Shown here: positions 1-17,896 of the stretch, in pieces
Position numbering within the stretch: the first letter of the stretch is position 1
Layout: the number at the start of each line of letters is the position of its first letter
Origin: a virus
Lineage: Duplodnaviria; Heunggongvirae; Uroviricota; Caudoviricetes
Virus record (IMG/VR): IMGVR_UViG_2713896904_000004
Length of the DNA: 30,821 nucleotides
Strand: one strand, 5' to 3'
Notes under the pieces: model-generated
Told to the model about the DNA's origin: nothing
Database searches by the model: none
The model's input: the letters and a program-made list of their open reading frames with translations, nothing else
Position numbers and translations under genes: made by a program

Positions 1-337
1 GATCTGGCAGCCTGAGTTCACAGATAAAACACTCTCCAGGAAACCCGGGGCGGTTCACAGCTTTGCTAATTCCGGGTAAATCAAGAATCAGATTCGCAAC
101 TTCAACCACCCTTTGGTACAACTTACCGCCTTTTTTCTCCCCATACTGTGGTTCTACATTCTTCAGATAACCGCAATCCGCCAAGGCGAGAAACGTTGCC
201 CTTGGGCATCCCTTCTTTCTTGAGGATTCGCTTTTTGTAACCTTAGCAACAGCGGCGTCCCAAGCCTCACGAGGAGACATTGATTTATCGGCAACCAAAT
301 TATAAGCAATTAAAGCGGCACGAGCGTATTGAGACAT
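1..337 (-). CDS. Hypothetical protein, 5' part only (ORF runs off the window start); begins MSQYARAALIAYNLVADKSMSPREAWDAAV
   Basis: Hand translation of the minus strand from ATG at 337..335 to position 1 gives 112 codons with no stop; absent from the ORF track because no stop lies inside the window. No family recognised. Confidence 0.4.
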   Translation of the reverse strand, partial: MSQYARAALIAYNLVADKSMSPREAWDAAVAKVTKSESSRKKGCPRATFLALADCGYLKNVEPQYGEKKGGKLYQRVVEVANLILDLPGISKAVNRPGFPGECFICELRLPD

Positions 338-922
338 AATGCATCCATATAAAAAATCTTATGATAAGACTTTTCTAATATGAACACTGTGATCTCACAT
401 ACTCTTGCAGGCTATTCAATTGGTTAGTTATGGTTTCGATGCGCTCACTGAGGACGAAAGAATCCCATTGAGCGATGTCAGTAAGTCTGAGACTGAAAGC
501 ATCATCCACGCCGGAGATGGTGCAGCATCTGGCGACCTGAGTTCATCACTAACCGATACAACCAAATAATATCATCGTAGAATTATTATTTATTTCCCCA
601 CTCCTTCTGCCATCTGCACCCAAATAGCGATCATTCCGACACAGATTTTCCTTTACATTACAAAAAATACCGTTCAAAAATGTAAACTCTTCCGGGTTAT
701 ACTCCCCCATCATCCACAATTTGCGCCACTCTTTGCCTGATACAGATAATATACAAAAAACATGCATCGTAGGGTCAGAAGTTCTGGTATTAACATCCAC
801 GATAATAAAAATAAAAGAAAGTAATTGCCGCCATTGTATGAAGAAGAAAAAATAACTAAAACGTCGAAAGGAACTGTGAACACGTTAAGGGAAAAATAAA
901 ATCAACGTATCATCAAGCAAAA

Positions 923-1822
923 CTAAACAGCGCCTTTATACTTCAGCCTATCTATAAATAAGGAGAATGCCGAGCCAGCATGTCGACGATGCGGATAGTA
1001 CAGGTGATAACCGGGTAAATCTGGTGTGAATTTATCCAGAACACGTATCAGTTTTTTTTCTTTAATCGCCCGCTCAACCTGATCATGAGGTAGATACGCT
1101 AATCCGTGCCCATCAATTGCAGCATCAATGATCAGGTCTATCGTATTCAGTAAAAGCTGACCTTCCATGCGAACACGAACTTCGCGTCCACCGCGTATTA
1201 ATCTCCAGCGATTTGCTGTACCCGATGTGGGAAGATACAAATTAATGGCCTGATGATCTATTAATTGTGACACTGACGTTGGAACACTTCGGCGGGAAAA
1301 ATAATCCGGTGAGCCAACAATAGCCATTGGTATATCTGGCCCGATTCGAATGGCGATCATATCTTTATCCATCTCCCCACCCAGACGGACGCCTGCATCA
1401 AAACGCTCAGAAACGACATCAGTCAAACCATAATCAATGATAAGCTGAATATCAATTTCAGGGTGTGATTTCAGGAATGTGCGCATGGCTGGTAACAATA
1501 TCGTTTTTGCTGCATGTTCTACAGTAGTAATACGTATTGTCCCGGATGGGCGATTCTGCAGCTCACTCAGGGATGACAGGGCAGAATCTATGTCATGCAG
1601 CATAGGGCCAAGAACAGACAAAAGATGCTCGCCCGCTTCAGTTGGTACAACACTGCGCGTGGTTCGCGTCAGAAGCCGCAATCCCAATCGTTCTTCTATA
1701 CGGCGCACTATCTGGCTTAAAGCTGACTGCGCCATGCCCAGGCGGACTGCTGCGCGAGTGAAGCTACGCTCCTCTGCAACGACGACGAATGCCATCAGAT
1801 CAGCGATTTCTTCACGTTTCAT
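923..1822 (-). CDS. LysR-family transcriptional regulator (299 aa)
   Basis: N-terminal HTH typical of LysR regulators (FVVVAEERSFTRAAVRLGMAQSALSQIVRRIEERLG), length typical of LTTRs with a C-terminal substrate-binding domain, divergently arranged with the neighbouring hydrolase gene. Confidence 0.85.
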   Translation of the reverse strand: MKREEIADLMAFVVVAEERSFTRAAVRLGMAQSALSQIVRRIEERLGLRLLTRTTRSVVPTEAGEHLLSVLGPMLHDIDSALSSLSELQNRPSGTIRITTVEHAAKTILLPAMRTFLKSHPEIDIQLIIDYGLTDVVSERFDAGVRLGGEMDKDMIAIRIGPDIPMAIVGSPDYFSRRSVPTSVSQLIDHQAINLYLPTSGTANRWRLIRGGREVRVRMEGQLLLNTIDLIIDAAIDGHGLAYLPHDQVERAIKEKKLIRVLDKFTPDLPGYHLYYPHRRHAGSAFSLFIDRLKYKGAV

Positions 1823-1846
1823 TCTGTATCTCTATACAATCTATTA

Positions 1847-1860
1847 ATCATTTAAATGAT
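1847..1860. promoter_or_regulatory. Perfect 14-bp palindrome ATCATTTAAATGAT in the divergent LysR/hydrolase intergenic region; candidate LysR-type T-N11-A operator
   Basis: Palindrome seen directly in sequence, 25 bp upstream of the LysR start codon and between divergent genes, where LTTR boxes normally lie. Confidence 0.3.
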
Positions 1861-1959
1861 AGGTCCAATCATGATTTTGGGTCTAATCAACTTAATGATC
1901 AATATCTATAGTGATATCACCAGCCGTTAAAACGAACCGGCAACGCCATGAGGAACGGA

Positions 1960-2880
1960 ATGATGAATAATAAAGTCAGCTTCACTAACAGCAATAATCC
2001 AACCATCTCTTTGTCTGCTGTGATCTATTTCCCTCCCCAATTTGATGAAACCCGTCAGTATCCGGCAATTGTGGTATCTCACCCCGGTGGAGGCGTTAAA
2101 GAACAAACAGCCGGAACCTATGCCGAAAAACTGGCGGAAAAAGGATTTGTCACCATCGCTTATGACGCCTCTTATCAAGGTGAAAGTGGCGGCGAGCCGC
2201 GTCAGTTAGAAAACCCATACATTCGTACTGAAGACGTCAGTGCCGTAATTGATTACCTGACAACACTTTCTTATGTCGACAATGCCCGAATTGGTGCGAT
2301 GGGAATTTGTGCCGGTGCAGGATATACAGCCAATGCTGCAATTCAGGATCGCCGCATCAAGGCCATCGGTACCGTTAGTGCGGTCAATATTGGTTCGATG
2401 TTCCGCAATGGTTGGGAAAACAATGTGAAATCTATTGATGCTCTGCCACACATTGAAGCTGGCTCAAACGCCCGAACCAGCGATATTAGCAGCGGAGAAT
2501 ACGCCATTATGCCACTGGCGCCAATGAAGGAGGCCGATGCGCCGAACGAAGAACTGCGTCAGGCCTGGGAGTATTACCACACCTCTCGCGCGCAGTATCC
2601 AACAGCACCGGGTTACGCTACTTTGCGCAGCCTTAACCAGATGATTACCTATGATGCTTACCATATGGCGGAAGTGTACCTGACTCAGCCGATGCAGATT
2701 GTGGCGGGCAGTCTGGCAGGAAGTAAATGGATGAGTGACGACCTGTACGATCGAGCATCAAGTCAGGATAAACGCTATCACATTGTTGAAGGCGCTAACC
2801 ATATGGACCTCTATGACGGCAAAGCCTATGTGGCTGAAGCGATTTCAGTATTAGCTCCATTCTTTGAGGAAACTCTGTAA
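1960..2880 (+). CDS. Alpha/beta hydrolase, dienelactone-hydrolase-like (Cys nucleophile)
   Basis: ORF track 1948..2880. Start moved to ATG 1960 because GAGGAA at 1950-1955 is a Shine-Dalgarno for the ATGs at 1960/1963. Motifs HPGGG, a GICAG nucleophile elbow with Cys, and a C-terminal ANHMDLYD His/Asp fit a DLH-type Cys-His-Asp triad. Confidence 0.75.
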   Translation: MMNNKVSFTNSNNPTISLSAVIYFPPQFDETRQYPAIVVSHPGGGVKEQTAGTYAEKLAEKGFVTIAYDASYQGESGGEPRQLENPYIRTEDVSAVIDYLTTLSYVDNARIGAMGICAGAGYTANAAIQDRRIKAIGTVSAVNIGSMFRNGWENNVKSIDALPHIEAGSNARTSDISSGEYAIMPLAPMKEADAPNEELRQAWEYYHTSRAQYPTAPGYATLRSLNQMITYDAYHMAEVYLTQPMQIVAGSLAGSKWMSDDLYDRASSQDKRYHIVEGANHMDLYDGKAYVAEAISVLAPFFEETL

Positions 2881-2968
2881 ATACCGGGTTATCGTAGATA
2901 TCAAAACAGCATAGAAAATAGCCAGTTTTGGGTAAAGTTTTGGGGAAGATTTTACATCATCATAAAAC

Positions 2969-2991
2969 AACGGGCGTGTTATACGCCCGTT
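2969..2991. terminator. Bidirectional rho-independent terminator hairpin (AACGGGCGT-GTTAT-ACGCCCGTT); terminator of the icd fragment on the minus strand
   Basis: Perfect 9-bp GC-rich stem with 5-nt loop; on the minus strand it is followed by GTTTTATG, 24 nt after the icd-fragment stop. It also lies 89 nt after the hydrolase stop on the plus strand. Confidence 0.6.
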
Positions 2992-3014
2992 ATAATATTT
3001 AACACATGTGGTAA

Positions 3015-3179
3015 TTACATATTTTCGATGATCGCATCACCAAACTCTGAGCATTTCAGCAGCTTAGCGTCGTCCATCAGACGTTCGAAGTCATAGGTTA
3101 CGGTCTTGGCGTTGATTGCACCTTCCATACCTTTAACAATCAGGTCTGCAGCTTCAGTCCAGCCCATATGGCGCAGCAT
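3015..3179 (-). pseudogene. icd: 3' fragment of isocitrate dehydrogenase gene icd (54 codons plus stop), the displaced copy at the prophage attachment junction
   Basis: Minus-strand translation [54 protein letters not shown] matches the C-terminus of enterobacterial Icd. The reading frame is closed by an in-frame stop two codons upstream, so homology ends at about 3180. Same 165-bp size as icdC beside e14 in E. coli K-12. Confidence 0.85.
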
Positions 3180-3412: not shown

Positions 3413-4246
3413 TTATTTCTGTAATCGATTTATATTAACGTAAAGCATCTCGATTAGTTCTTTTGCATTTTTACTATAGTGCAATTCTCTATGGCAATTC
3501 GGACAAAGGGCAACACAGTTATCTGTTGTATCAGCACCACCTGAAGACAGGGGAATTACATGATGCACTTCCAAGTATGGGCTTCCATCATTTAAATAAA
3601 ACGGAGCATTTTTACCACAGTTTTCACATATACCTTTACTTTGCTGTAAAATCCAAGCTTTTACCATCGGATCTCGGACATAAACTTTTTGTAGTCTTTC
3701 TACCTCAACTGGTTTCCTGGAGCCCTCGGGCTGACTCAACGTTTTCTTAATTAATTTACTAACCCTCATATTCAGAAGCGATTCATCATCTGTAGGCTGA
3801 GAAAGCTCTGATAGTTCTCCACGTATTATAGACACCCAAAAACTGTCACTATAAATACCTGGAACATTTATCAATATTCGTTTCGTTCTATTGCCGGAAG
3901 GAATTTCCTTTCTCCCCGTACGACTAAAATAAGCCTGATAACCACACATCTTCAAGCGTATATCGCGGGGGCTATTACCAATCAAAGTAAAATATTCACC
4001 AGGATGGATTTTTCTTTCATCCAAAGAATGCATATGTTTTCTGACTGATGATGACGCCAGATATACTACGACTTGGGATACACCAGAATCAACCAACCGT
4101 TCAATGATATAATCAAGAGCGATATTGTAATCTTTGTTTCTGTCACCCGGCCCCCACGACTCAAGGATTAGACCATAAACACCATCCTCTTCACCTATCA
4201 AACACTCAGCTTTCAGTTCAATTCCATTATTATCAAAAACATGCAT
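3413..4246 (-). CDS. mcrA: McrA, type IV (modified-cytosine) restriction HNH endonuclease, 277 aa
   Basis: Full-length match by recall to e14 McrA, including the C-terminal HNH motif (CENCGKNAPFYLNDGSPYLEVHHVIPLSSGGADTTDNCVALCPNCHRELH). AT-rich gene at the prophage end beside pin, as in e14. Confidence 0.9.
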   Translation of the reverse strand: MHVFDNNGIELKAECLIGEEDGVYGLILESWGPGDRNKDYNIALDYIIERLVDSGVSQVVVYLASSSVRKHMHSLDERKIHPGEYFTLIGNSPRDIRLKMCGYQAYFSRTGRKEIPSGNRTKRILINVPGIYSDSFWVSIIRGELSELSQPTDDESLLNMRVSKLIKKTLSQPEGSRKPVEVERLQKVYVRDPMVKAWILQQSKGICENCGKNAPFYLNDGSPYLEVHHVIPLSSGGADTTDNCVALCPNCHRELHYSKNAKELIEMLYVNINRLQK

Positions 4247-4352
4247 AATATTAATCTTTAATCAATTTTTTACGACAATACTACTTTTATTGATAAAATT
4301 GCAACAAGTTGCTGTTGTTTTATTTTCTTTTGTACACAAAGTGACTTTAACT

Positions 4353-4907
4353 TTATTTATCCCCTGCAGGAAACATCTTATACAAAGTTGACACACCAAC
4401 ATCATAGATGATCGCCACCTTCTGGCGAGGAACTCCTGATGCAATTAATCGTCCGGCCTGTTCCCATTGTTCTGGTGTAAGTTTGGGACGACGTCCACCA
4501 ATTCGTCCCTGTGCGCGAGCAGCTTCCAGTCCAGCTTTTGTTCGTTCAACAATCAGTTCACGCTCCATTTCAGCCAGGGCACCCATCACATGAAAAAAAA
4601 AGCGCCCCATTGGGGTACTGGTATCAATTGAATCCGTCAGACTACGAAAGTTAATGCCTCGTTCGCGCAACTCCTCCACCAGCACGACAAGATGCCGCAT
4701 ACTGCGCCCCAGTCGGTCCAGTTTCCAGACCACCAGCGTGTCACCTGCCAATAATGTCCTGAGCAGTTTTTTCAGTCCTGGTCTGTCGGACTTAGTTCCA
4801 CTGATTTTATCCTCAAAAATCCGCTCACATCCCGCGCAGTTCAGTGCATTACGTTGCAAATCGGTGTTCTGGTCATTTGTTGACACGCGTACATAGCCAA
4901 TAAGCAT
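4353..4907 (-). CDS. pin: Serine recombinase, DNA invertase Pin (Gin/Hin/Pin family), 184 aa
   Basis: Starts MLIGYVRVSTNDQNTDLQ with the catalytic Ser-containing resolvase N-domain and a C-terminal HTH; the track ORF 4353..4913 has two extra N-terminal codons. Adjacent to the invertible segment. Confidence 0.9.
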   Translation of the reverse strand: MLIGYVRVSTNDQNTDLQRNALNCAGCERIFEDKISGTKSDRPGLKKLLRTLLAGDTLVVWKLDRLGRSMRHLVVLVEELRERGINFRSLTDSIDTSTPMGRFFFHVMGALAEMERELIVERTKAGLEAARAQGRIGGRRPKLTPEQWEQAGRLIASGVPRQKVAIIYDVGVSTLYKMFPAGDK

Positions 4908-4934
4908 GATCATCCCTCTGAATAAAAACCAGAG

Positions 4935-5324
4935 ATGATGCCAGTTAGCCGTTATTTCTGCATTTTCATAAACGTTGGTTTGGGAGAAGCGGCAAAACGG
5001 AATGTGGGAACAGGAGAAAATCAGAAACCAGATATGTCTGCATTTCCATCTGGCAAAAACTGGTTTCAGTTACCAAGTGGTCATATTGTTCAAATGTTTT
5101 CGATGAATGTTTATGGGGCGGACACTAACGGAACTACTGGTAATTTCCCTATTGCATTTCCTTCAGGTGCACTGGCTGTTAGTGCCTTATGGTCTGATGG
5201 CACATTAACGGCTGCTCCGACCTTTAAACTTATGGGGTACACGACAACAAGGACATCAGTAACCTTAAAAGTATCAACCGGAAATGGTTTGTATGGAACT
5301 ATGATTATCGCAATAGGAAGATAA
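4935..5324 (+). CDS. Alternative tail-fibre C-terminal exon (silent orientation; would fuse to the constant N-terminal part after inversion)
   Basis: ORF in the invertible segment; NVGLGEAAK at its 5' end is encoded by the crossover site, and it is followed by its own tfa gene. Functional coding starts at the crossover (4963), not at the track ATG. Confidence 0.6.
   Translation: MMPVSRYFCIFINVGLGEAAKRNVGTGENQKPDMSAFPSGKNWFQLPSGHIVQMFSMNVYGADTNGTTGNFPIAFPSGALAVSALWSDGTLTAAPTFKLMGYTTTRTSVTLKVSTGNGLYGTMIIAIGR
4963..4988. repeat. 26-bp Pin crossover site, left (TTTTCATAAACGTTGGTTTGGGAGAA), inverted repeat partner of 6823..6848
   Basis: Its reverse complement TTCTCCCAAACCAACGTTTATGAAAA matches the site at 6823..6848 at 21 of 26 positions and resembles gix/hix sites. 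Confidence 0.8.
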
Positions 5325-5325
5325 T

Positions 5326-5769
5326 ATGAATCAATATATTTATTCCCCTTCGGAAAATGCATTTTATGCTGTTAATTTAAAAAATACTTATGAAGTAAAT
5401 GGAACATGGCCCGCTGATGCATTAGATATTCCTGATAACATTTTTGTAAAATATATAGCGGAACCGCCACAAGGGAAAATCCGAGTTGCAGGGGTAAATG
5501 GTTTTCCCACATGGGCTGAAATACCTCAACCATCACATGAAGAACTTATTCAACAGGCAGAATCAGAAAGAAAATTATTGCTTAATCAGGCCAACGAACA
5601 CATGAACAGTAAGCAATGGCCCGGTAAAGCCGCTATTGGTCGTCTGAAAGGTGAGGAACTGGCGCAATATAATTTGTGGCTGGATTATCTGGACGCACTG
5701 GAACTGGTCGATACTTCCAGTGCTCCAGATATTGAATGGCCTACGCCTCCGGCAGTTCAGGCCAGATGA
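5326..5769 (+). CDS. Tail fibre assembly protein (Tfa/Mu U-like), partner of the silent tail-fibre exon
   Basis: 147 aa, immediately downstream of the alternative fibre exon inside the invertible segment; its C-terminal DTSSAPDIEWPTPP mirrors the convergent tfa C-terminus DTSTAPDVIWPELP. Confidence 0.75.
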   Translation: MNQYIYSPSENAFYAVNLKNTYEVNGTWPADALDIPDNIFVKYIAEPPQGKIRVAGVNGFPTWAEIPQPSHEELIQQAESERKLLLNQANEHMNSKQWPGKAAIGRLKGEELAQYNLWLDYLDALELVDTSSAPDIEWPTPPAVQAR

Positions 5770-6343
5770 CATCCGGCGCGGTGCTGGTATCTGTTACCGT
5801 CACCGCGTCAATGTAATCCAGCACGGCGTTAAGTCGGGTTGTTTCTGCCTGCGTCAACTTCCGTCCGGCCTGCGATTTCAGTTGAATCAGACTAATGGAA
5901 GCCATTGCAGTATCAATCAGTGACTGACGTTGTGCTTCTGCCGCGTCTACTGCGGCGCTATGCTGTGCCTCGGTATCCGTCACCCATTTCTCACCATCCC
6001 ATTTATCGTATGGCGTTAACGGGGCGATAGTGGTTGTTTTTTCGGGGTAATCACCCGGAGTTGTGATTTCTTTGGCGTCTCCCGTTTCGGTGTTATAGAC
6101 GATTTCACCGCGATGGTCTGGCACATATTCCCATGAGTTTAAATCCATCGAACGGCAGATAGCATAACCAGCCTTATATGTGCCTGGTGCATCTAAACAG
6201 GAACATGCAGGAATACCGACACCCACAGCAAGATATTCATTTGAAGTGGAAATATATTCCCGGGTTTCACTATCATAGTTATATACTGTAATATTCCCTG
6301 CTTTGGTGGCGATAATCTCGCTATTTAATATGGCGTTATCCAT
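5741..6343 (-). CDS. Tail fibre assembly protein (TfaE-like, 200 aa), partner of the expressed tail-fibre variant
   Basis: Directly downstream of the tail-fibre gene with a 1-nt stop/start overlap, inside the invertible segment; same 200-aa size as e14 TfaE. Confidence 0.8.
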   Translation of the reverse strand: MDNAILNSEIIATKAGNITVYNYDSETREYISTSNEYLAVGVGIPACSCLDAPGTYKAGYAICRSMDLNSWEYVPDHRGEIVYNTETGDAKEITTPGDYPEKTTTIAPLTPYDKWDGEKWVTDTEAQHSAAVDAAEAQRQSLIDTAMASISLIQLKSQAGRKLTQAETTRLNAVLDYIDAVTVTDTSTAPDVIWPELPEA

Positions 6344-7125
6344 TATGCAGCCCTCACAATATAGTTAAATGCAATATTCCTTGGTCGAACCCTAAAACCA
6401 GCCCCTGCGCCTGCTCCAGTTGGTGGCAATTCGATAGAGGGGTATGCTGTTGCAGGGGAATATAGACCTTCACGGGAATCATAATCAGTCGTCATATAGT
6501 TAGACGTATTATCAGAAACAGTTTCTGTCGGTCTGGTAACCAGACGATAAGAGCCAGTGGTTGGTGATCTGACCAGACCAAAACTTTCAACCAGAGTGGC
6601 TTTTTGAAAGCTTAATAATCCCCGACCACTGTCAGCTCCACGCCCGTCATCCCAGCCACGAATAAACTCACCGCGTAAATCAGGTAATTTATTTGCCGGA
6701 TAAGCCTTTGCCAGTTCCGGGTATTCTTCAGCAGAAAATGCCGCACCGTTGCATTTCAGCCAGCCTGTTGGCGGAGTGGCAGAAGGCCACGGAACAGGCA
6801 CTCCAACGGGTAATGCCGAACCTTCTCCCAAACCAAGGTTTTCGAGAGCCGTTTTCACCGTGCCATCCGATTTGATATCGCCAAACGGATTATTGCGGCT
6901 TAACAGCAGCGCGCGAAGTGCGGTAAGCAACTGATCGTGCCGCCCCTTCTCCAGGCTGGCACCGGATGCCTCCACCACGCTGCAAAGCTCCTCCTGCAAC
7001 ATGTCAAAGTAGTCATCATCCAGATCGGTGGCAGGCGTGCCGGTCTGGGGGTTACCACGGGTAAAACCGTTCTTACCCGCGCCGAACTTATCCTTCTGCG
7101 CGGTTTTCGTGTCTATACGATGCAT
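6343..7125 (-). CDS. Tail fibre protein (constant N-terminal part plus variable C-terminal part in the expressed orientation), 260 aa
   Basis: N-terminus [21 protein letters not shown] is a typical Mu S / P2 H-like fibre N-terminus; the gene spans the right crossover site; Gly/Pro-rich C-terminal half. Confidence 0.8.
6823..6848. repeat. 26-bp Pin crossover site, right (TTCTCCCAAACCAAGGTTTTCGAGAG), inside the tail-fibre gene
   Basis: Inverted repeat partner of 4963..4988; encodes the ENLGLGEG junction of the tail-fibre protein. Confidence 0.8.
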
Positions 7126-7128
7126 GGA

Positions 7129-7713
7129 TTACTCCGGATATTTAAAAATTACGTAGGTATGCGACGGGCAGAGTTTGTTAAGCACACACTCGACAACGGT
7201 GTCACCCCAGATACGCAGTGCGGAATCACAGGGATCGCCACATGTCATCCAGGTGGTGTTGGCGGCGGCTGGCATGTTGACCTGCCAGTAATACCGCCAT
7301 TCCGGCGCATTCACAGCGTCAGTACAGGCCGATGAGCAGGTGAACGTGCTTTTGTCGTATCGCGTGATGGTGGCATCCGGTCTGCCCAGGGCAGCAAGCT
7401 GTGCAAGATAAAAATCCTCGTTGATGCCGCCCGCCAGGTTAACCTTCGCATCCAGCCGTTGCTGACGCTGGCGAAGGGTCTGTGTCCCTGCGGGAATACA
7501 TTCATCCGGCAGACCGCACAGACGCTCCCAGCGGTTTATCAGTTCATTGGTGGTGCGCGGATCCAGCTCCCGCATCAGGGCATCCGCACGCTGATGAACG
7601 CGGGTTAATGACGGTGCCGCACCGGCAATCGCCGGATCGCTGGCTGACCACGCCGGACCGGGGGGCAACAGTGCCGACAACAGACGGATGTAATCATCGT
7701 TTGTCACGTCCAT
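7129..7713 (-). CDS. Baseplate/tail protein (Mu gp48 / e14 YmfQ-like, DUF2313-type), 194 aa
   Basis: Position between the baseplate J-like gene and the tail fibre gene, overlapping the upstream gene; size and order match Mu gp48 / P2 gpI-like proteins. Assigned by synteny and recall. Confidence 0.65.
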
Positions 7714-8762
7714 GAAATCGTCCCCAGTACCGCCAGTTCATTTTTTGCAATGGAGATATTGTCTGCCGGTGCAAGCAACTGATGGCTGTATTCCCCGTTC
7801 GCACCGGAAATCGCCTCACTGATACGCGATACCTTCAGTTCTCCCTGCGGATAACCATCACGCAGCAGGAACGAACGCAACTCCGCGGTAATGGCAGCCC
7901 GTATTTCCGGTGTGTCCGGCGTCACACGGATATGAAAATCCACCGTATGTGCCACCGGCCTGAATACATACAAATCAGAGCCTGCCACCGGGGCCAGTGG
8001 CCCGATATGTTGTCTTGCTGCCGTTTCCGTTGATTCTTCCGGAATGGGATTAATCAGGTCACTGCTGGCAATCATCACACCGACAGTTCCCGTTCCCATC
8101 CAGTGACGGTATGTCCATGCGCGGGTAATGCCGGGCACTTCTTTAGCCCAGACGACATAGTCCCCGTCAGCCCCGCCCTGAGGCGTCCAGTAATACCGCT
8201 CAATGACGCGGGCGCGCCACGTTTCCAGCTCTTCAGTATCAAATCCACCTGTCAGGGTATCTGCCACGCCGGAAGACGGCAGACCATTAACCGGCGTGAC
8301 CAGGATTAATGCCGTACCGTCGTCAGCGTTACCGACCGCGCCTGCACTTGAGCAGGCGATCGGCACGCGCAGGACACCACCGGAGCTGGTTGCATCGGCA
8401 GTTGCCGTGTACTGAACCAGGTCATCGCGCTGAATAACACTCCCGGCGGTCACCTTCAGGCCATCGCTGACACCTTCCCAGCGCATATACCCGCTGGCAG
8501 CCGTGGCCCCCTTGCGCGGACACCGTTTCATCGCAGCATGTCGCGCCAGCCAGGACTCATCGCACAGGTCAGGCAGCATGTTCATTGCCAGATAATCGAT
8601 GTATCCGTAAACTGTATGCAGCGCCGCCGCATACACCTTTGCCCGCACGTCTTCATCCATGCGCCGGAGCGTGTCGCTGACGTCCAGCCTGGCGAATAAA
8701 TCGTTACGGAGCATACTGATATTTTCTGCCAGCGTCGGGCGCTGAAATTCACTGTCCGCCAT
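7704..8762 (-). CDS. Baseplate J-like protein (Mu gp47 / P2 gpJ family), 352 aa
   Basis: Size and position in the baseplate operon between the gp46-like and gp48-like genes; overlapping start/stop codons typical of the module. Confidence 0.75.
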
Positions 8763-9177
8763 GCGTTATCGCACTCCACAGATCATCAAAAGAAATCATT
8801 ACCGGTCCGTCACGACGCCAGAGAGTGATACTGTTACCCAGTTCATTAATCCCGGTGCGGCGGATATCCAGATCAATACGGGACACCACGCCGTCATCAA
8901 TCATCCATTGCAGGCATTCGCGGATATACCCCCTTACCGTCAGCACCAGCTGATTGGTCAGTTTGCTGCGCTGAAGCAGCCACAGCCGGGAGCCGTAACG
9001 GTCATTCTGTACCGCAGGCCAAGTATCCCCCCACCATCCCATCGGGACGTCGGCGTTGTCATCAGGCTCCGCCCGCCGCCAGGTAAACAGGGAAATCACC
9101 ACGGCGCGGGTCAGCGGATCCAGCGGTGCGCTGGCGCAGGTGCGTTTACCGTTCACCGTCAGCCACAGTTCCATCAT
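8749..9177 (-). CDS. Baseplate protein (Mu gp46 / P2 gpW-like), 142 aa
   Basis: Small protein between the spike gene (gpV-like) and the J-like gene with 4-nt ATGA overlap upstream; synteny with Mu/P2 baseplate operons. Confidence 0.65.
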   Translation of the reverse strand: MMELWLTVNGKRTCASAPLDPLTRAVVISLFTWRRAEPDDNADVPMGWWGDTWPAVQNDRYGSRLWLLQRSKLTNQLVLTVRGYIRECLQWMIDDGVVSRIDLDIRRTGINELGNSITLWRRDGPVMISFDDLWSAITHGGQ

Positions 9178-9722
9178 GCCTCCATCGCTTTATCCGGTTT
9201 GTCGGTGTTACTGCCCTGACCGTTCTCTCTGTGACGATGCCCGTTATAGGCAAGCCGCATCGCTGACATGGTGGTGCCGCCGGAGTCGCACAGGTCTTTC
9301 ACCTGTCCTGTCACTTCCAGGTCCATTTCAAAACGTGCTTTAGGTGAATTGCGAAACGTGATCGTTTTACCTGCACCGTCCACCACGATCCCCTCCCGGG
9401 TCAGCGTCACGGACTGCCCCTGATCGTCATAGACCGCCACCTCACCCGTCTGCAGCCCTTTCAGGCGGTAGCGCCGGTCCGACACCGTAACAACCACCGC
9501 ATGAGAACGGTCGCCATCCGGAAACAACACCACCGCTTCCGCACCGCTGTTTGCCCTTGCGGTAAAACCGTAGGGTTCAAGATGTTCAACCCCGGCTTTG
9601 GGTTCACCGGCAATCAGGGACACATCCACGGTCTGACATTTCGTGGCGGCACTGATGCTTTTCACCACTGCCCGCCCAATCAGGCCGAGAAGTTGTCGCT
9701 GCATGGCTTCAATCGTCCTCAT
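9174..9722 (-). CDS. Baseplate assembly protein V-like (central spike, Mu gp45-like), 182 aa
   Basis: Size and position immediately downstream of the hub gene; Gly-rich OB-fold-like N-terminal half. Confidence 0.65.
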   Translation of the reverse strand: MRTIEAMQRQLLGLIGRAVVKSISAATKCQTVDVSLIAGEPKAGVEHLEPYGFTARANSGAEAVVLFPDGDRSHAVVVTVSDRRYRLKGLQTGEVAVYDDQGQSVTLTREGIVVDGAGKTITFRNSPKARFEMDLEVTGQVKDLCDSGGTTMSAMRLAYNGHRHRENGQGSNTDKPDKAMEA

Positions 9723-10801
9723 CAGAACGGGTCCTCCTGTACTCTGGCTTTTTTCTTTTTCCGCGCGCCGGGGTCTTCAGGTTCAGGCAGATAAGCATCA
9801 GGCGGGCCGACACGGATTTCCGTCAGGGTGCCGTTCTGGTCCTGAGTAAACGTGACTTCCGAAACAAGCAGTTCGGTATTGTCAAAACCACAGACCGGAT
9901 CAAAGACAATCACCCGCTGGTTGGGTTGCCACAGCGTACCGTTACCCTGTCGCCAGCCCTGCACCACATAGGTGGTTTCATCCGTCCGCGCCGCCCGTTG
10001 CCGGGCTTCAAAGTCAGCACGCGCAATACAGCCTGCCCCCGTAGCCTGCCCTGTCTGCCTGATATACATCGGACGGTAACGGGCAATAAATGCGTCCTCT
10101 GTGCGGGCCCGCAGCGCGGTGGTGGTGGCCTCACCGAAATCATCGTCGTTTCCGGCACGCTGCCCCGCCACCTGGTAAACAGAAAACCGCTCCCGGATAC
10201 TCTTCTCCGTATCGCAGGAAAGGATGTTTTCCCCAAGTACCAGCGCGGTATGTGCCCGCGTTGAGCCAATACCACCAATCACCAGCCTGCCGTGCGGGTC
10301 GTCGTAAGCCAGCGCCTGCTGCTGACCGAGTATTTTGTTGATCACCTCAATCACCGTTTCACCGTGATCAGGCTGGACATCAGGAATAACACCCGACGGC
10401 GCACCGCTGTTCACCACCTCAATGCCGAAAGGCGCAGCAAGCGCCTGCGCAATCTGTACCAGCGATCGTCCGTTAAACTGTGTCGGTTCGGCTGCACAGT
10501 CAATCAGGTCAGCGGTCAGACTACGTCCGGCAATACCGGTGCTGACCGAACGGGCATCGTAACGAACGGGCGTCGCCTCCACCCAGCCGGTGATCACCAG
10601 CTCATCACCAATCAGCACCTCCACTTTTGAACCGTTTTTAATGCGCGACTGAAGCGTGGTAATACCCTCATCTCCCGGCCACTGGCGGGTGATCTCCACA
10701 CTGAAATCCCGCGCCAGTCGTTCAACACCGGCACCGATGCGCACCGATGTCCAGCCATTCCACTCCCGGCCATTTACCCGTAGCGTGACGTTATCGTTCA
10801 T
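9722..10801 (-). CDS. Baseplate hub / tail protein (Mu gp44 / P2 gpD-like), 359 aa
   Basis: Located between the DNA circulation gene and the spike gene with overlapping stop/start; size matches gpD-like tail proteins. Confidence 0.7.
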   Translation of the reverse strand: MNDNVTLRVNGREWNGWTSVRIGAGVERLARDFSVEITRQWPGDEGITTLQSRIKNGSKVEVLIGDELVITGWVEATPVRYDARSVSTGIAGRSLTADLIDCAAEPTQFNGRSLVQIAQALAAPFGIEVVNSGAPSGVIPDVQPDHGETVIEVINKILGQQQALAYDDPHGRLVIGGIGSTRAHTALVLGENILSCDTEKSIRERFSVYQVAGQRAGNDDDFGEATTTALRARTEDAFIARYRPMYIRQTGQATGAGCIARADFEARQRAARTDETTYVVQGWRQGNGTLWQPNQRVIVFDPVCGFDNTELLVSEVTFTQDQNGTLTEIRVGPPDAYLPEPEDPGARKKKKARVQEDPF

Positions 10802-12126
10802 TGCACTGGCACCTTCAGAGGGATCACCGGCACAAAGCCGGGATGCGTAATGGCATTACGCCGGATAATGTCCGCGTCACGCGCCGCGTTATCAAACCAG
10901 GTCGCCGCCAGCACCAGCGCGGGTAAAACCTCATCCGGCGTGCGCTGAATGATCCGTGCAGACTGTTCAAGGCGCGTGTTGATATCCGCATTCAGATCTG
11001 CTTTCACCCGGCGCAGCGCCAGAAACAGCGCATCACTGGTTGTACGGGACAACTCCTTATCAATTGCCGTATTCAGTGTGTCGCGAATGTCGGTCAGTTC
11101 TTCCCACGTTGGCAGGTCAACCGTGTTTTTCACCGCCGGTGCATTGTTCAGTGCCGGATGCGTGACAGAAGGCCAGCCGGTGCTCTGCGCGGGTGTTGTT
11201 GACTGCCCCACTGTGGCATTCTGCATCACCGCGGAAGTTGTGGGCGCAGGCAATCGTGTGACGGCATACGCCGCTTCGCTGATTGCGGTCGTACGAAGGG
11301 TGCTGGCAACCACGTTACGCTGCTGCGTCGCCGTGGCGGTGGTTTTACTGTCCGTTTTCCAGACGCCGCGCGGTTGCAGATCGCTGCCGAGGCTGACACC
11401 GGAAAGCGTTTTGATTATGGTGACCAGGTCGCTGGCGTTACCATAAAGGCGTTTCCCGGTACGCCACATTTTCTGCACCTGCTCAACGAAATTTTTGCCT
11501 GACGATGGCGGCGGCAGAAGTACCGAGATATCCCCCTGCAACAGCCTGGCGGCATCCGATACGGCAGAATCCACCACTTTCATCGCATCAGAAACATACC
11601 CAAGCATTGTGCTGGCATTACCGACGACGTCGTTCTGCACAAAATCTGCCACGCCATCGATACTGAAACCACTGAAGCTGTCACTGATGCAGTCATCCAG
11701 TGCAGAACAGGATGACATCAGCGTCTGCGCCGTCGCCGCACCTGAAGTGGGGTAAGAGAGTTCTCCCGCTTCGACAAACTTCAGGTCAAAGCGGACAATA
11801 CGCCCTTCACTCTTCGATGTGCTGACCCGAACTTCCCCGTCAACACAGACTTTCAGCTCACCGTAAGTCGGATGGACAAGCGTGCCGGGACCGGGTTTAT
11901 TCAGCGCGTCAATCAGGCGATCGCGCTGGTCAAAGCAGTCATCTCCCACCACATAAGCTGTGATGGACGGGCGGAAAGTGATTTTCCCCAGGTCTTCGGT
12001 ATAGGGTTTGTCGCGGTTCGGATATTCGTGTGTTTCCACACGACGGCCGGTTCCCGCACTTTCTTCTTCAACCTTAAACGGCACACCGCGAAATGACGCG
12101 TCCTGAAGTCTGTCTTTCCACGTCAT
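10798..12126 (-). CDS. DNA circulation protein (Mu N / gp43-like), 443 aa from ATG 12126
   Basis: Conserved N-terminal block WKDRLQDASFRGVPFKVE typical of Mu N. The track ORF starts at 12168, but ATG 12126 has a GGAG Shine-Dalgarno and leaves the upstream hairpin intergenic. Confidence 0.75.
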   Translation of the reverse strand: MTWKDRLQDASFRGVPFKVEEESAGTGRRVETHEYPNRDKPYTEDLGKITFRPSITAYVVGDDCFDQRDRLIDALNKPGPGTLVHPTYGELKVCVDGEVRVSTSKSEGRIVRFDLKFVEAGELSYPTSGAATAQTLMSSCSALDDCISDSFSGFSIDGVADFVQNDVVGNASTMLGYVSDAMKVVDSAVSDAARLLQGDISVLLPPPSSGKNFVEQVQKMWRTGKRLYGNASDLVTIIKTLSGVSLGSDLQPRGVWKTDSKTTATATQQRNVVASTLRTTAISEAAYAVTRLPAPTTSAVMQNATVGQSTTPAQSTGWPSVTHPALNNAPAVKNTVDLPTWEELTDIRDTLNTAIDKELSRTTSDALFLALRRVKADLNADINTRLEQSARIIQRTPDEVLPALVLAATWFDNAARDADIIRRNAITHPGFVPVIPLKVPVQ

Positions 12127-12141
12127 ATAAACTCCGTACAT

Positions 12142-12162
12142 AAAAAATCCCACCGGAGTGGG
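12142..12162 (-). terminator. Short hairpin plus T-tract (CCCAC-TCCG-GTGGG-ATTTTTT on the minus strand) between tape-measure and DNA-circulation genes; possible attenuator
   Basis: 5-bp GC-rich stem with tetraloop followed by six T on the transcribed strand, in the 60-nt gap between stop 12187 and start 12126. Confidence 0.3.
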
Positions 12163-12186
12163 ACTCATTAACAGATTAATTTTTCA

Positions 12187-14022
12187 TTACCTGCCAAAGC
12201 GCGTATAGCCAACATCATGGCTGACATCAAAACCGCTGGATCGCGTTTCCATAACCCGCATCCCCGGAGGCGAATTCACAAAAGAGACCTTGATCTCACC
12301 ATCAACTTTTGGCGCAGAAGCTTTGTTAATCATGAAGGGATTCGAGCCTGTGGCATCGGAGGCGTTGTTTGACTGAGCCGGATCCACCGCCGGATAAGGT
12401 GTGTATCCCCGCGCCGGTATTCCCGTCCCATAAGCATCATAAGCACCCGCGCCCCACTGCGCAGAGTTAATGGCATCGACCGTGTCACCGGAACTGTCGG
12501 TAAACCACTCAATAATTGGCTTCAGCTTGTCCCACATATCCTGAAACCACTTAACAACCGGTCCCCAGTTATTGATTACCATCCCCAGCGGCGACCAGGC
12601 AAAAACCTTCTTCAGAAGTTCCCAGCCAGCCTCAAAATAAGGACCAATGGTTTCCCAGAGTTTCTTAAAATAAGGTCCGACAACATCCCAGTTAGTGATA
12701 ATTAATCCCGCAGCCAGGGCTATCGCCGTCGCAATCATGCCAATCGGCGTCATCGACATGATCCTGCTGACAATACTGATGGCACTGCCCACGCCCATCA
12801 ATCCCAGTTTCAGAATCGCAAGACCGGCAGCAAGCCCGACGACGCCGCGAATAACCCGGGGATTTTCATCCGCAAACTTCGTGAATTTTTCCCCCAACTC
12901 CCCCAGCCATTGCGTGATATTTTTAGCGTCACCAGAAAATGCGCCGCCAATAGCTGCAAGACCGTTAGTTGCGGTCCCCGTCATTGCCTCCCACAGGTTG
13001 GACAGCGTACCAAGCTGTGCCTGAACACGTTTATTCAGGCTGGCCTGTTTATTCATCTTCTGCTGGATCTGATCGTAACCATCCTTTCCTTTATCGATCA
13101 GGGCATTGACCACCTGAAGGGTTTCGGCATCATCACCAAATATTGCCTTAAGTACACCTGTTCGCTTAACGTCGGTCAGTTTTCGCAGCTTTGCCAGTTG
13201 CTTAAACATGTTATCAAGACCGCCAAAACTCCCTTTGCTGTCAGTAAAATCGAGCTGCACCCCGAGTTTCTGGCGGGCCATGACTTTATTGACGTCCCTG
13301 ATTTTCTTAACGCTTAATCCGGACTGGATAACTTTTCGCAGGGCATTACCTGCCGACTCCCCATTCATCCCCATCTGATCCATCATGACGCTGATAGGGG
13401 CAAGGCTCTGTGCAGCCTGAAGACCGTCCTTATTCACCATCTTCAGAACAGAACTGGTTTTAGTGAAGAAGGACAACATGTTGGTATCGTCAACGCCCAG
13501 ATAAAACGCCTTCTGGATAGTGTCGAACAGCCCCATCATGTCTTCTGACGCCGTTCCGGTAGCATCCTGCATCTTTGCAGCAAACTCAGCAGCCGCTTCC
13601 GGTGTTTTTTTCAGTTGTACCGCAAGATAAGCTGTCGCTTTACCCACACCACCCAGAATGTTTTCTGCCGGGATCCCCTGACGCACCAGCATCTGCATCA
13701 TGTTCTGGAAATCAGCCGTTGTACCGGGTAGCTGGTTACCCAGACCAATAGCCAGTTTATTGATGTCCTGAAAGCTCTTTCCAACCTCGCCGTTCGCATC
13801 CATCATGGCGACTTTCAGCCCGGTGGCGGCGTTTTCCTGATCGGCATAAGATTTCAGGGAAAGCGTCAGACCCGCTGCCAGTCCGCCACCAAGCGCCAGC
13901 CCACCCTGTGACGCTTCTTCCGCCTGGCGTTTAAATCCCCGGATTTTCTTTTGCATTTTCGACAGCGCGGGAGAAAGCCTGTCGACACCGGTGATCAACG
14001 CCTTAAGCTCAAATTCAGCCAT
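12187..14022 (-). CDS. Tail tape measure protein, 611 aa
   Basis: Long Ala/Gly/Met-rich protein with hydrophobic glycine-zipper-like segments, directly downstream of the frameshifted chaperone pair and upstream of baseplate genes. Confidence 0.85.
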   Translation of the reverse strand: MAEFELKALITGVDRLSPALSKMQKKIRGFKRQAEEASQGGLALGGGLAAGLTLSLKSYADQENAATGLKVAMMDANGEVGKSFQDINKLAIGLGNQLPGTTADFQNMMQMLVRQGIPAENILGGVGKATAYLAVQLKKTPEAAAEFAAKMQDATGTASEDMMGLFDTIQKAFYLGVDDTNMLSFFTKTSSVLKMVNKDGLQAAQSLAPISVMMDQMGMNGESAGNALRKVIQSGLSVKKIRDVNKVMARQKLGVQLDFTDSKGSFGGLDNMFKQLAKLRKLTDVKRTGVLKAIFGDDAETLQVVNALIDKGKDGYDQIQQKMNKQASLNKRVQAQLGTLSNLWEAMTGTATNGLAAIGGAFSGDAKNITQWLGELGEKFTKFADENPRVIRGVVGLAAGLAILKLGLMGVGSAISIVSRIMSMTPIGMIATAIALAAGLIITNWDVVGPYFKKLWETIGPYFEAGWELLKKVFAWSPLGMVINNWGPVVKWFQDMWDKLKPIIEWFTDSSGDTVDAINSAQWGAGAYDAYGTGIPARGYTPYPAVDPAQSNNASDATGSNPFMINKASAPKVDGEIKVSFVNSPPGMRVMETRSSGFDVSHDVGYTRFGR

Positions 14023-14197
14023 GTGTGCGTTTCTCCTGCTCTATCCTGTTTGCCTGACTGACCAGCAAGGGAATTTCACTGATCGGCATATTCAGCAATT
14101 CGAAGGGATTAATGCGCCAGTAGCTGGCGCAGTCAAAGAAGCGATCAGTGAGGTATTCAGCCGTCAGGCCTGGAGGAAAAAACCGGCCACAAGCCAC
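14015..14197 (-). CDS. -1 frame extension of the tail assembly chaperone (GT-like fusion product made by frameshifting at 14176..14182)
   Basis: ORF in the -1 frame relative to 14164..14433, overlapping it across the slippery site and ending 8 nt inside the tape-measure start; the conserved G/GT arrangement. Confidence 0.55.
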   Translation of the reverse strand: MACGRFFPPGLTAEYLTDRFFDCASYWRINPFELLNMPISEIPLLVSQANRIEQEKRTHG

Positions 14198-14433
14198 GCC
14201 GCTGCATTCAGGTCTGCCGGAGACATCTGGTCGACAGAGCTTTGCGGCACTTTCGCCAGCCGCACAATGTATTTCGACACCACATGCGCCAGAAGTCTGA
14301 CGGACTCATCCTGATTCATCTGGTAGGGATACCCCAGCTCGCGGACATCCTTCCCGGTGGGTTCATCAAACTCCAGTACGGAGAGTGTCTCGCCATGAGC
14401 AATAATCGGTTTCTTTAACTCAAGCTCTTTCAT
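14164..14433 (-). CDS. Tail assembly chaperone (G-like), 89 aa; 5' ORF of a programmed -1 frameshift pair
   Basis: Position between tube and tape-measure genes; ends 10 nt after a T_TTT_TTC slippery heptamer. Confidence 0.7.
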   Translation of the reverse strand: MKELELKKPIIAHGETLSVLEFDEPTGKDVRELGYPYQMNQDESVRLLAHVVSKYIVRLAKVPQSSVDQMSPADLNAAAWLVAGFFLQA

Positions 14434-14789
14434 TACTGGTAATCCCCTTCTTCACCGTGGAACTCAAGATCAACCGTGCCTTCTTCGGCATTATGGTTCG
14501 CTTCGCCGTGCAGCCAGGCAGACGACAGTACATAGACCTGACCGTTCGCCAGCTCGGCAGTGATTGTCATCTCATCAGACGAGGTGATTTTGCTCACCGG
14601 AAAATTCTTCGGCACCTTGAAGGTCCCTTTGACATAAGGCGCACGGTGAGTTTCCTTGCGGTCCACTGAACCGTCCAGGCCGATGATGTCATCATTGACC
14701 GTCCTGTTCATGGGCACCTCAATGCCGCCGGTCAGCGATAGCTGCTGACCGTCAATTTTGAAATAACAGGTTCCCCCGATACGGGCCAT
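14433..14789 (-). CDS. Tail tube protein (Mu M-like), 118 aa
   Basis: Small protein immediately downstream of the sheath gene with 1-nt stop/start overlap; canonical sheath-tube order. Confidence 0.75.
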   Translation of the reverse strand: MARIGGTCYFKIDGQQLSLTGGIEVPMNRTVNDDIIGLDGSVDRKETHRAPYVKGTFKVPKNFPVSKITSSDEMTITAELANGQVYVLSSAWLHGEANHNAEEGTVDLEFHGEEGDYQ

Positions 14790-16285: not shown

Positions 16286-16439
16286 CGGTGTTCACCTTTT
16301 TATTCACGCGCCGGATATCACCCGCGGCTTCACGGCGCAGCCAGTAGTTGTTCTCATCAACATTTCGCCCCTCGGCGGGCAAAAGGTCGCCGCGGGCAGG
16401 GTCAGGAACTGACCGCCCTTTAACAGGTTTCACAAACAT
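16269..16439 (-). CDS. Small hypothetical phage protein (56 aa), not in the ORF track
   Basis: Hand translation from ATG 16439: MFVKPVKGRSVPDPARGDLLPAEGRNVDENNYWLRREAAGDIRRVNKKVNTDDDKL*; fills the otherwise gene-free 160-nt gap and overlaps the sheath start by 17 nt. Confidence 0.3.
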   Translation of the reverse strand: MFVKPVKGRSVPDPARGDLLPAEGRNVDENNYWLRREAAGDIRRVNKKVNTDDDKL

Positions 16440-16447
16440 GAAGATTC

Positions 16448-17008
16448 TCAGGAAGGAAGGGTTATTTCGGTGTGATGTTCGATATCGCCGTCAGGCCCGT
16501 TACCGGGCTCGAGATAATCAACATCAATCGCCAGCGTTTGCAGTTCATCCAGACTGTTCAGATCATCCTGCTGGCGGGTATCGTCTTCAGTCAGCTCGCT
16601 GATGACCGAAAAATCGAACTGATAAATCAGCTCATGACGATTCAGATCCAGCAGCGTGCCGCCGTCATAGGTAATCGGGTTACCGCACGCCTCCGGGTTC
16701 CAGCCCAGCAGAGCCTTAAAGAGCATCTGCCGGACATCGTCCACCACATCATACGAGGCAAACTGACCGCGCTCATCACGCCCGTTACTCAGTATGACAA
16801 CCACGGAGAAACCCTCTTTCAGCTCCTGCCAGTAGTCGGTCTGGCTTTTGTTTTCTCCCGGAGAGTCATCACCCGGTACCACATACGCCGCCGGGAGTCT
16901 CAGCTTTCCGACCTCCGGCAGATTTTTGAACTGTGCCGCGCCTGCCACCCGGTTTTCAAAATACGGGCAGCGGGCACGCAGCGCAGCAATAACAGGCGTC
17001 AGTTTCAT
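16448..17008 (-). CDS. Tail-associated structural protein (tail terminator/completion candidate), 186 aa
   Basis: Position between neck genes and sheath gene; 4-nt overlap with the upstream gene; no motif recognised. Confidence 0.5.
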   Translation of the reverse strand: MKLTPVIAALRARCPYFENRVAGAAQFKNLPEVGKLRLPAAYVVPGDDSPGENKSQTDYWQELKEGFSVVVILSNGRDERGQFASYDVVDDVRQMLFKALLGWNPEACGNPITYDGGTLLDLNRHELIYQFDFSVISELTEDDTRQQDDLNSLDELQTLAIDVDYLEPGNGPDGDIEHHTEITLPS

Positions 17009-17511: not shown

Positions 17512-17896
17512 TGCTGCCTCCGTGACTCTGCCTACATTCGCCCAGCTCCGTACACTCCAGCAGCAGAAAGCGCCGCGCCCCGTTCAGATCACGCTGACGT
17601 TTCACCCGGTACACACTGTCATCACAGACCACCTCATAATCAGCAGTGATCCCCCGGCGGTAACGAATGGTGATGTAATGGGTGATGGCGTCCCCGGTCT
17701 GCGCGGTCTCCTGCCAGGTGGTGGCACTGGTCTGGATAACCTTCGCACATGTCCGGAACGTAACCGGGTATTGAGGCTCCACGCCAAAGTTATCCGCGGG
17801 CATATCCACCCGCTGGCGGATCAGGACGCGTTTATTCAGTTCACCGGGGTCCGGCAGAATGTAGGTTGCGCTGGTCTGCGCCTGACGAATTTTCAT
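17486..17896 (-). CDS. Head closure / head-tail adaptor protein, 136 aa
   Basis: Downstream of the gp6-like connector gene with 4-nt overlap; typical size. Confidence 0.6.
   Translation of the reverse strand: MKIRQAQTSATYILPDPGELNKRVLIRQRVDMPADNFGVEPQYPVTFRTCAKVIQTSATTWQETAQTGDAITHYITIRYRRGITADYEVVCDDSVYRVKRQRDLNGARRFLLLECTELGECRQSHGGSNGDSLFSR

Follow-up and report, generated by a model that had tools for sequence, protein, structure and literature searches.

The 30,821-nucleotide stretch of DNA analysed here (IMG/VR record IMGVR_UViG_2713896904_000004; the whole stretch is referred to as the window) carries an invertible tail-fibre segment that we read as a Pin/pix inversion switch of the Hin/Gin/Cin/Pin family, located in Escherichia albertii, where an e14-type, SfV-like myovirus prophage occupies icd and carries the switch at its right end. 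We place the probability of this reading at roughly 0.85. The parts of the switch, the in-frame exchange of fibre tips, and the existence of the segment in either orientation among relatives that seem isogenic and have the same pin gene and crossover sites are established by the comparisons described below. The mechanism is textbook and its e14 example has been known since 1985; the system is confirmed here, not discovered, and what appears to be new is that the species and the receptor-binding cassettes differ and that the phage is apparently intact. In this mechanism Pin dimers would bind both 26-bp sites and, together with Fis on an enhancer in the 5' end of pin, bring them into synapsis, whereupon Ser9 would cut at the central dinucleotide and rotation and religation would leave positions 4976..6835 inverted. 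The late operon would then read from ymfQ into a constant 100-codon fibre N-terminus and on into the cassette that happens to face it. At present this is cassette A, which would give a 260-residue fibre with a collar tip followed by a 200-residue TfaE-type chaperone; in the other state it would be cassette B, giving a 212-residue fibre like SfV orf21, with a Gp53-like tip, followed by a 147-residue chaperone. A population of lysogens would in this way release virions of two receptor specificities.

The pin-proximal, pix-type site L (4963..4988, TTTTCATAAACGTTGGTTTGGGAGAA) and site R (6823..6848, TTCTCCCAAACCAAGGTTTTCGAGAG), which is embedded in the fibre gene, lie exactly where an earlier note on this DNA, made from the letters alone, had placed them, and they agree at 21 of 26 bases after reverse complementation, as it had counted; the 14 interior-facing bases all match. 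Each site consists of imperfect 12-bp half-sites around a 2-bp core, TT at 4975-4976 in site L and AA at 6835-6836 in site R. This central dinucleotide is common to the two inverted sites and the inner half-site of each is TTCTCCCAAACC, so that inversion would recreate the same two sites. Their description as gix/hix-like is borne out by the 12-2-12 layout, which is shared with the gix sites of Mu and with P1-type cix sites (taken from NC_000929 and NC_031129), and by a search with a relaxed invertase-site consensus (up to 3 mismatches), which returned two matches in the 30.8-kb window, sites L and R, and none in 100 shuffles. No extra crossover site of the kind expected for a shufflon or a Min-type multiple-inversion system was found in the window at this threshold, and these readings were set aside. 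A repeat search of 5.5 kb recovered the core of the sites as an inverted repeat of 20 nt at 95% identity (I1) alongside a second inverted pair of 20 nt at 90% (I2), so an inverted repeat of such size is by itself unremarkable. The significance of the repeat derives instead from its uniqueness in the window, from the identity of both sites at 26/26 positions to the E. coli K-12 e14 sites (one beside pinE, the other in stfP), and from natural inversions that break at both sites. The stretch of about 1.9 kb that the sites had been said to flank measures 1,886 bp (4963..6848), and the exchanged segment, with its two convergent cassettes, 1,860 bp (4976..6835).

Adjoining the segment, 55 bp from site L, is pin (4353..4907, minus strand; the program's open reading frame (ORF) call reaches 4913), which encodes a DNA invertase of 184 residues. 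The protein is a small serine recombinase with a catalytic serine and a C-terminal helix-turn-helix (Pfam Resolvase, 2e-51; HTH_7, 4e-14; PHROG 125, DNA invertase, 1e-97), and it aligns over its full length with crystallised Gin (3UJ3/4M6F, E about 1e-95) at about 77% identity. The catalytic Ser9 is kept, within MLIGYVRVSTNDQ, and stands opposite the catalytic position of Gin, which is Ala in 3UJ3 and Ser in 4M6F. Pin is identical to K-12 PinE at 176 of 184 positions (96%). Two changes are private to the window protein among the five invertases compared, L29R and S53L, at positions that also vary in Gin and in P1-type Cin. In both protein and DNA the gene is 100% identical to the pin of E. albertii loci that occur in both orientations. 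Where the earlier note had allowed for a single orientation together with an inactive pin, relatives thus hold both orientations and the catalytic serine is retained. Within pin the window carries an unbroken A9 run at 4593..4601 (T9 in the sense of the gene, with codons Phe-Phe-Phe), which is common to 8 of 8 E. albertii loci, the E. coli alleles at this position being TTTTTCTTT. Slippage in this tract could potentially turn pin off; it is in frame in the window and in the lineage in which the segment flips.

A candidate Fis-bound recombinational enhancer lies at 4823..4886, within the 5' end of pin. It is bounded by two 15-mers of the form G-N13-C (nt 22-36 and 71-85 of the gene) whose register is kept in five of five invertase genes (three pin alleles, Mu gin and one P1-type cin), a conservation confounded by coding constraint. 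The candidate spans 64 bp, with the 15-mers centred about 97 and 146 bp away from the middle of site L. This geometry is consistent with the published element of 65 bp with a Fis site at either end, about 100 bp from a hix site (PMC3798978); such elements normally lie in the 5' end of the invertase gene. The assignment is unproven. Inversion is presumably dependent on Fis and such an enhancer, dependence on Fis and on supercoiling being traits of the family. A Fis-motif scan of pin (GNNYAWWWWWTRNNC) gave a weak pair about 205 bp from site L and was set aside as uninformative, since the motif occurs about 8 times per kb.

The tail-fibre gene in its current state (6343..7125, minus strand, 260 residues) comprises a constant N-terminus (6849..7125) and cassette A, the collar-domain tip (6343..6822). 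K-12 StfP is matched at 96% identity by residues 1-105, and StfE at 59% by the current C-terminal tip; Pfam Collar is matched at residues 108-155, and the protein is related to T4 gp37 (2XGF, 6e-16) and gp12. Site R lies inside this ORF and encodes ENLGLGEG, as had been read from the sequence at the outset. The fibre stop at 6343 overlaps the start codon of the cassette A chaperone (5741..6343, minus strand, 200 residues; Caudo_TAP, 6e-31; phrog_105), which is TfaE-type, 89% identical to K-12 TfaE and, judging from this arrangement, expressed downstream of the fibre in the current orientation. On the other strand, the pin-proximal ORF (4935..5324, plus strand; 129 residues, or 128 from the second ATG) consists of a short leader outside the segment followed by cassette B, which matches Pfam Gp53-like_C over residues 46-129 of the ORF and, weakly, the R1-pyocin fibre 6CXB; cassette B is accordingly classed by domain match as a Gp53-like C-terminal receptor-binding domain. 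Two nucleotides past its stop begins the cassette B chaperone (5326..5769, plus strand, 147 residues; Pfam Caudo_TAP, 3e-33; phrog_188), 48% identical to K-12 TfaP. Site L encodes FINVGLGEAAK in the plus-strand ORF. The earlier note had taken NVGLGEAAK as the beginning of a silent exon; the motif is indeed encoded by site L, but it belongs to a complete ORF, with its own start outside the segment, that may be expressed. The crossover thus falls within the fibre ORF and serves two alternative C-termini, each with its own Caudo_TAP chaperone. Domain and structure-database matches indicate that the two tips differ structurally, one being of the gp37/gp12 collar type and the other Gp53-like or R1-pyocin-like, and they presumably bind different receptors. 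The convergent chaperone genes overlap by 29 bp (5741..5769). A further inverted repeat within the segment (5679..5696 and 5805..5822; 18 nt, 83%) derives from the conserved C-terminal ends of the convergent chaperones (LDY(L/I)DA...DTS(S/T)APD...WP).

In-silico inversion of 4976..6835 joined the constant N-terminus in frame to cassette B, yielding a 212-residue fibre with the 147-residue chaperone directly after it, in agreement with the proposal that inversion swaps the fibre C-terminus together with its chaperone. The same operation converts the pin-proximal ORF into a 177-residue protein with the collar cassette at its end, and both frames stay open. Of the predicted proteins, the exact 260-residue fibre is recorded from E. 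albertii, as are the 128-residue pin-proximal protein (RefSeq WP_059259341.1) and the exact 177-residue chimera of the flipped state (WP_059228811.1). No match to the exact 212-residue flipped-state fibre was found in a collection of 15 billion proteins, which is probably explained by a single-nucleotide polymorphism (SNP) at 5026, a position of the cassette B exon at which the window and its E. albertii relatives differ.

Comparison of relatives shows that the segment inverts. Against K-12 MG1655 the flanks of the window run antiparallel and the interior parallel, with the breakpoints inside the sites; the window segment is therefore oriented opposite to that of the MG1655 reference. Among complete E. 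coli genomes with a full-length match at 80% coverage or more, 11 held the native form and 5 the simulated-inverted form, and none of the complete E. coli genomes carries the region above about 94% identity. Natural inversions with breakpoints inside the 26-bp sites are documented by three independent, near-identical genome pairs. E. coli MEI3A-1023 and MEI1-1023, which have chromosomes of the same length, show 0 differences over 8,863 bp when the segment of one is turned round between the centres of the sites. E. coli ET670 and ET979 show a clean flip, the only differences lying outside the segment at the first bases of the locus, with an insertion sequence (IS) in one of the two. The third pair, E. 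albertii JAWJKF010000007 and JAWJKG010000007 (both 302,071 bp), has 100% identical flanks of 8,647 bp each around a flipped interior of about 1.87 kb, and its pin and sites are identical to those of the window. The window matches JAWJKF010000007 exactly in mcrA, pin, the gap between pin and site L, both sites and the fibre gene, and within the segment the two differ by just 4 SNPs (5026, 5444, 5744 and 5874). The cis- and trans-acting parts visible in the window are therefore those of a lineage that exists in two states. Published work is in agreement: inversion of the e14 P segment has been observed in vivo in an MG1655 derivative by whole-genome sequencing and PCR (PMC4272514) and measured by quantitative PCR with PinE, PinQ and PinR, and the P segment was found inverted in 33% of 562 E. 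coli genomes (PMC12529663).

Several observations weigh against the reading of the locus as an active, Pin-driven host-range switch. The window itself shows one orientation, and the evidence for flipping comes from relatives, not from reads of this strain. The flips in relatives prove that the sites work, not which invertase acted on them. The fibres are short (260 and 212 residues) and other receptor-binding proteins may also contribute to adsorption; a difference in host range is not known to have been demonstrated for any e14-type fibre. The enhancer assignment leans on registers conserved inside coding DNA, and the naive Fis-motif scan of pin did not detect the candidate at 4823..4886. The early half of the prophage and its integrase end lie outside the window, and some close relatives carry damaged structural genes (for example a 498-residue TerL, and a split baseplate J gene in CP045690), which leaves inducibility unproven; the prophage is presumably inducible nonetheless. 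In K-12, PinQ and PinR, which belong to other prophages, are reported to invert the P segment more efficiently than PinE (PMC12529663).

The alternative that survives best concerns what the switch is kept for. The pin-proximal ORF is, by position and architecture, an analogue of K-12 StfE2, the protein at the centre of the PinQ/StfE2 'recombinase-activated phage inhibition' system (Kirigo et al. 2025, PMC12529663), which involves the same segment, the same sites and the same ORF architecture. StfE2 has a pin-proximal start and a Gp53-like domain at residues 47-125 and is reported to be expressed; the same study also reports a fall in T2 adsorption to 3-12% caused by StfE2, and resistance to T2 in the inverted state (PMC12529663). 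The window likewise has an ORF that starts outside the segment and runs in frame into a Gp53-like domain, and it is in the StfE2-type 'inverted' state. It differs in that its Gp53-like domain is 31% identical to that of StfE2 and in that its carrier is an apparently intact phage where the K-12 carrier is a cryptic remnant; no PinQ or second invertase is visible in the 30.8-kb window. On this basis the switch could be kept mainly for defence of the host and prophage, not for virion host range: the cassette facing pin would be translated from the ATGATG start as a free receptor-binding protein that masks outer-membrane receptors and blocks adsorption. We regard this as unlikely, while noting that it is compatible with a fibre switch. 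The shared architecture with a protein reported to block adsorption (PMC12529663) speaks for it, as do the ATGATG start, which lies outside the segment and is kept in nine of nine loci (the window, K-12 and other E. coli or E. albertii loci in both states), a reading frame that is open in both orientations, and a moderately hydrophobic leader. Against this, the coding constraint on the site is enough by itself to predict an open frame across it, and gene callers extend ORFs in the same way in Mu (Mup52) and in the P1-like phage SJ46. The low identity of the Gp53-like domain to its K-12 counterpart also counts against this reading, the pin-proximal ORF has no PADLOC match, and the published StfE2 effect comes largely from plasmid overexpression and docking. 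A scan of 4200..7800 for sigma-70 promoters and terminators found 7 promoter-like sites where 5.4 were expected, none of them useful for pin and none upstream of 4935 facing the ORF. The leader, with a Kyte-Doolittle mean of 1.6-2.2 over 11 residues, is unconvincing as a signal peptide, and that idea was dropped. In an intact phage a role in the fibre is the simpler explanation. A combined version, by analogy with K-12, is slightly more doubtful again: Pin could be a bifunctional switch, one flip of which would change both the virion tip and a free receptor-masking protein of 128-177 residues made by the lysogen from the ATGATG start. If this were true, virion host range and the phage-exclusion profile of the lysogen would be toggled reciprocally by a single flip.

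A second alternative accepts the inversion and questions the enzyme. The segment might be flipped by an invertase acting in trans from elsewhere, PinQ/PinR-like or P2-type, with the adjacent pin silent or weak. In K-12, PinQ overproduction gave 88% inversion against 49% for PinE, and PinR acts on the same segment (PMC12529663). Enzymes of the Pin family cross-complement, as reported for PinE with Gin, Hin and Cin (cited in PMC12529663), and related modules of invertase plus segment are found in P2-like phages at 87% identity. However, the Pin of the window is intact, has all catalytic features and is encoded 55 bp from its own site, and in K-12 the segment is locked in one orientation in pinE and pinE pinQ mutants (PMC12529663). 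A trans-acting enzyme is for these reasons improbable as the agent, and the adjacent Pin presumably does the flipping.

That the locus is a frozen relic, in which repeats and pin persist while no longer recombining and orientation differences reflect assembly artefacts or RecA events, is very improbable: the single orientation of the contig, the slippage-prone T9 run in pin and the unverified enhancer candidate fit it, but E. albertii assemblies with 100% identical flanks carry the same T9 allele, the same pin DNA and the same sites in either orientation, the breakpoints fall exactly within the 26-bp sites in all three independent pairs, RecA does not efficiently recombine repeats as short as 20 bp, and a repeat of that length is below typical assembler k-mers and so should not be collapsed or arbitrarily oriented.

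The closest known counterpart of the Pin switch is the P-segment system of e14 in E. coli K-12 (Plasterk & van de Putte 1985, as cited in PMC4272514). The identification of the locus as the e14 P-inversion holds for mechanism, sites and synteny; it does not hold for the element itself, which is from E. albertii, lies in the opposite orientation and carries different tips. Like the window switch, the K-12 segment is at the right end of a prophage in icd, with the same gene order at the icd attachment site, identical sites and an orthologous invertase. Pin is 96% identical between the two, the constant fibre N-terminus 96%, YmfQ 97% and McrA 99%. The cassettes diverge: identities are 89% for the TfaE-type chaperone, 59% for the StfE-type tip, 48% for the TfaP-type chaperone and 31% for the StfP-type tip, and window positions 4990..5613 and 6379..6637 have no DNA-level match in K-12 e14. 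The scaffold is therefore that of K-12 e14 but the receptor-binding modules differ. K-12 e14 also lacks a 12.7-kb block of head and tail genes that is present in the window (8491..21151, encoding baseplate, tape measure, tube, sheath, connectors, capsid, protease and portal), and its flanks at the gap meet at the jayE'/aaaE' pseudogenes. The lack of this block makes the K-12 element a deletion derivative of such a phage. The lysis-to-Q region of the window has no DNA-level homology to K-12 e14.

The G segment of Mu (Gin/gix; S-U versus S'-U') and the C segment of P1 (Cin/cix) have the same 12-2-12 sites with the crossover in the fibre ORF and, like the window, two convergent cassettes of tip plus chaperone and an invertase gene abutting the segment. 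Homologues of Mu gp44-gp48 form a Mu-like baseplate upstream of the window switch. The Mu segment is larger, at about 3 kb with fibres of about 500 residues against 1.86 kb and fibres of 260 and 212 residues, and its core dinucleotide is TC where that of the window is TT. The carriers differ as well, the window belonging to a lambdoid, integrase-dependent prophage, whereas Mu is a transposing and P1 a plasmid prophage. Host-range switching by segment inversion has been demonstrated for Mu and P1, and by analogy inversion of the window segment would be expected to have a host-range consequence.

The viable Shigella flexneri myoviruses SfV, SfI, SfII and SfIV have baseplate genes and a fibre N-terminus 97-98% identical to those of the window, with position 6822 as the exact start of the homology. 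In SfV an orphan 26-bp site, identical to site R, lies within orf21 (4002..4027 of the SfV locus); the orf21 product has a C-terminus resembling cassette B (GLGEAAKR...), its length of 216 residues comparing with 212 predicted for the alternative fibre. No pin, second site or second cassette was found in the 10.4-kb SfV locus examined, which holds one fibre gene and chaperone followed by gtr genes and int. Judged by these features, the Sf phages behave like a fixed form of the window's other state. In P2-like phages (e.g. NC_041848, E. coli O157:H43 T22) the invertase and the entire segment are present at about 87% DNA identity, including TfaE-type and 147-residue chaperones and near-identical sites that differ at 3 to 7 positions; unlike in the window, the module is joined to a 499-residue P2 H-type fibre and a P2 baseplate. 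The fibre-embedded site is thus an exact module junction, common to the SfV family and the P2-like phages. This makes the site relevant to the origin of tail-fibre mosaics. Here the same switch is attached to a seemingly complete SfV-like myovirus late region, in a lineage caught both ways, and at this locus the two proposed roles of P inversion, in host range and in blocking adsorption, could be tested side by side in a natural setting.

ON470584.1 (vB_EcoM-689R6) was considered as a sequenced e14-type phage and rejected: the record includes the host genes icd, mnmA and hflD and so provides no virion evidence. In this partial genome record the invertase and mcrA are joined straight to a truncated fibre gene, with the invertible segment missing, and the record has the look of a prophage prediction that was stitched together and broken at the segment. 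Exact pix-type sites are almost restricted to Escherichia and Shigella in a scan of species representatives. Lonsdalea quercina NCCB 100490, a plant-pathogenic member of the Pectobacteriaceae, gave exact matches to the pix-type pattern, one of them 90 bp from a contig end, which hints at a related invertible fibre segment outside those two genera.

The exact match of the 128-residue pin-proximal protein identifies the source as E. albertii, the window being a whole contig, and the surroundings of the switch are those of an e14-type prophage integrated at icd. Upstream of the fibre, the last constant gene of the late operon is ymfQ (7129..7713, minus strand; Mu gp48-like baseplate protein, Pfam Phage_Mu_Gp48, 97% identical to K-12 YmfQ), preceded in that operon by a Mu gp47-like baseplate J gene (7704..8762, minus strand). 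On the other side of pin lie mcrA (3413..4246, minus strand; 99% identical to K-12 McrA, PADLOC mREase_IV, 2e-200) and icdC (3015..3179, minus strand), the duplicated 3' end of icd that marks the right prophage end. The order ymfQ, fibre, segment, pin, mcrA, icdC is the mirror image of that in K-12 e14. The late region is unbroken and runs in the order Q, holin, endolysin, spanin, small and large terminase, portal, protease and major capsid, then adaptors, sheath, tube, tape measure, the Mu-like baseplate and the fibre switch, and every late gene, from Q through to the fibre, is of full length. The contig ends within a DUF968 gene, beyond which close E. albertii relatives continue with KilA-N, RusA, Dam, replication, CII-like and Cro-like genes and an S24 repressor. 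The earlier suggestion that the switch is complete in a full prophage therefore stands for the late operon from Q to the fibre; the early region lies past the contig end and is seen only in relatives. A complete prophage is thus supported for the morphogenetic half and plausible for the remainder.

Between holin and Q, two genes lie on the opposite strand (27246..29638, plus strand). They encode a 391-residue NA37-like nucleoid-associated protein and a 404-residue protein of phrog_5023 with no function assigned; neither has a PADLOC match, the pair is conserved in E. albertii relatives, and they look like a moron or accessory cassette. At the other end of the window, positions 1..57 are unmatched in an otherwise collinear E. 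albertii relative, and the part of 1..3000 outside the host block (826..2880) is matched at 99% identity or more by about 1,600 E. coli records; the contig-end sequence is probably a repeated or IS-like element. In keeping with an E. albertii origin, identity to E. coli is only about 96% in the host genes that come next, which encode a LysR regulator (pgrR) and an alpha/beta hydrolase. A 5.8-kb record labelled 'MAG: Bacillota bacterium' (JAEWTL010000032.1) is 98% identical to window positions 6822..12462 and has its start 154 bp ahead of the crossover site. The record is probably enterobacterial phage DNA placed in the wrong bin, from an assembly broken at the variable or invertible region. 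Finally, in the E. albertii relative PDHK01000008.1 (1..2300) homology to the window stops in the sheath gene, at about window position 15713, and genes for a Mu-like transposase, a Ner-like protein and a repressor follow the breakpoint, which suggests that a Mu-like prophage has inserted into an e14-type prophage.

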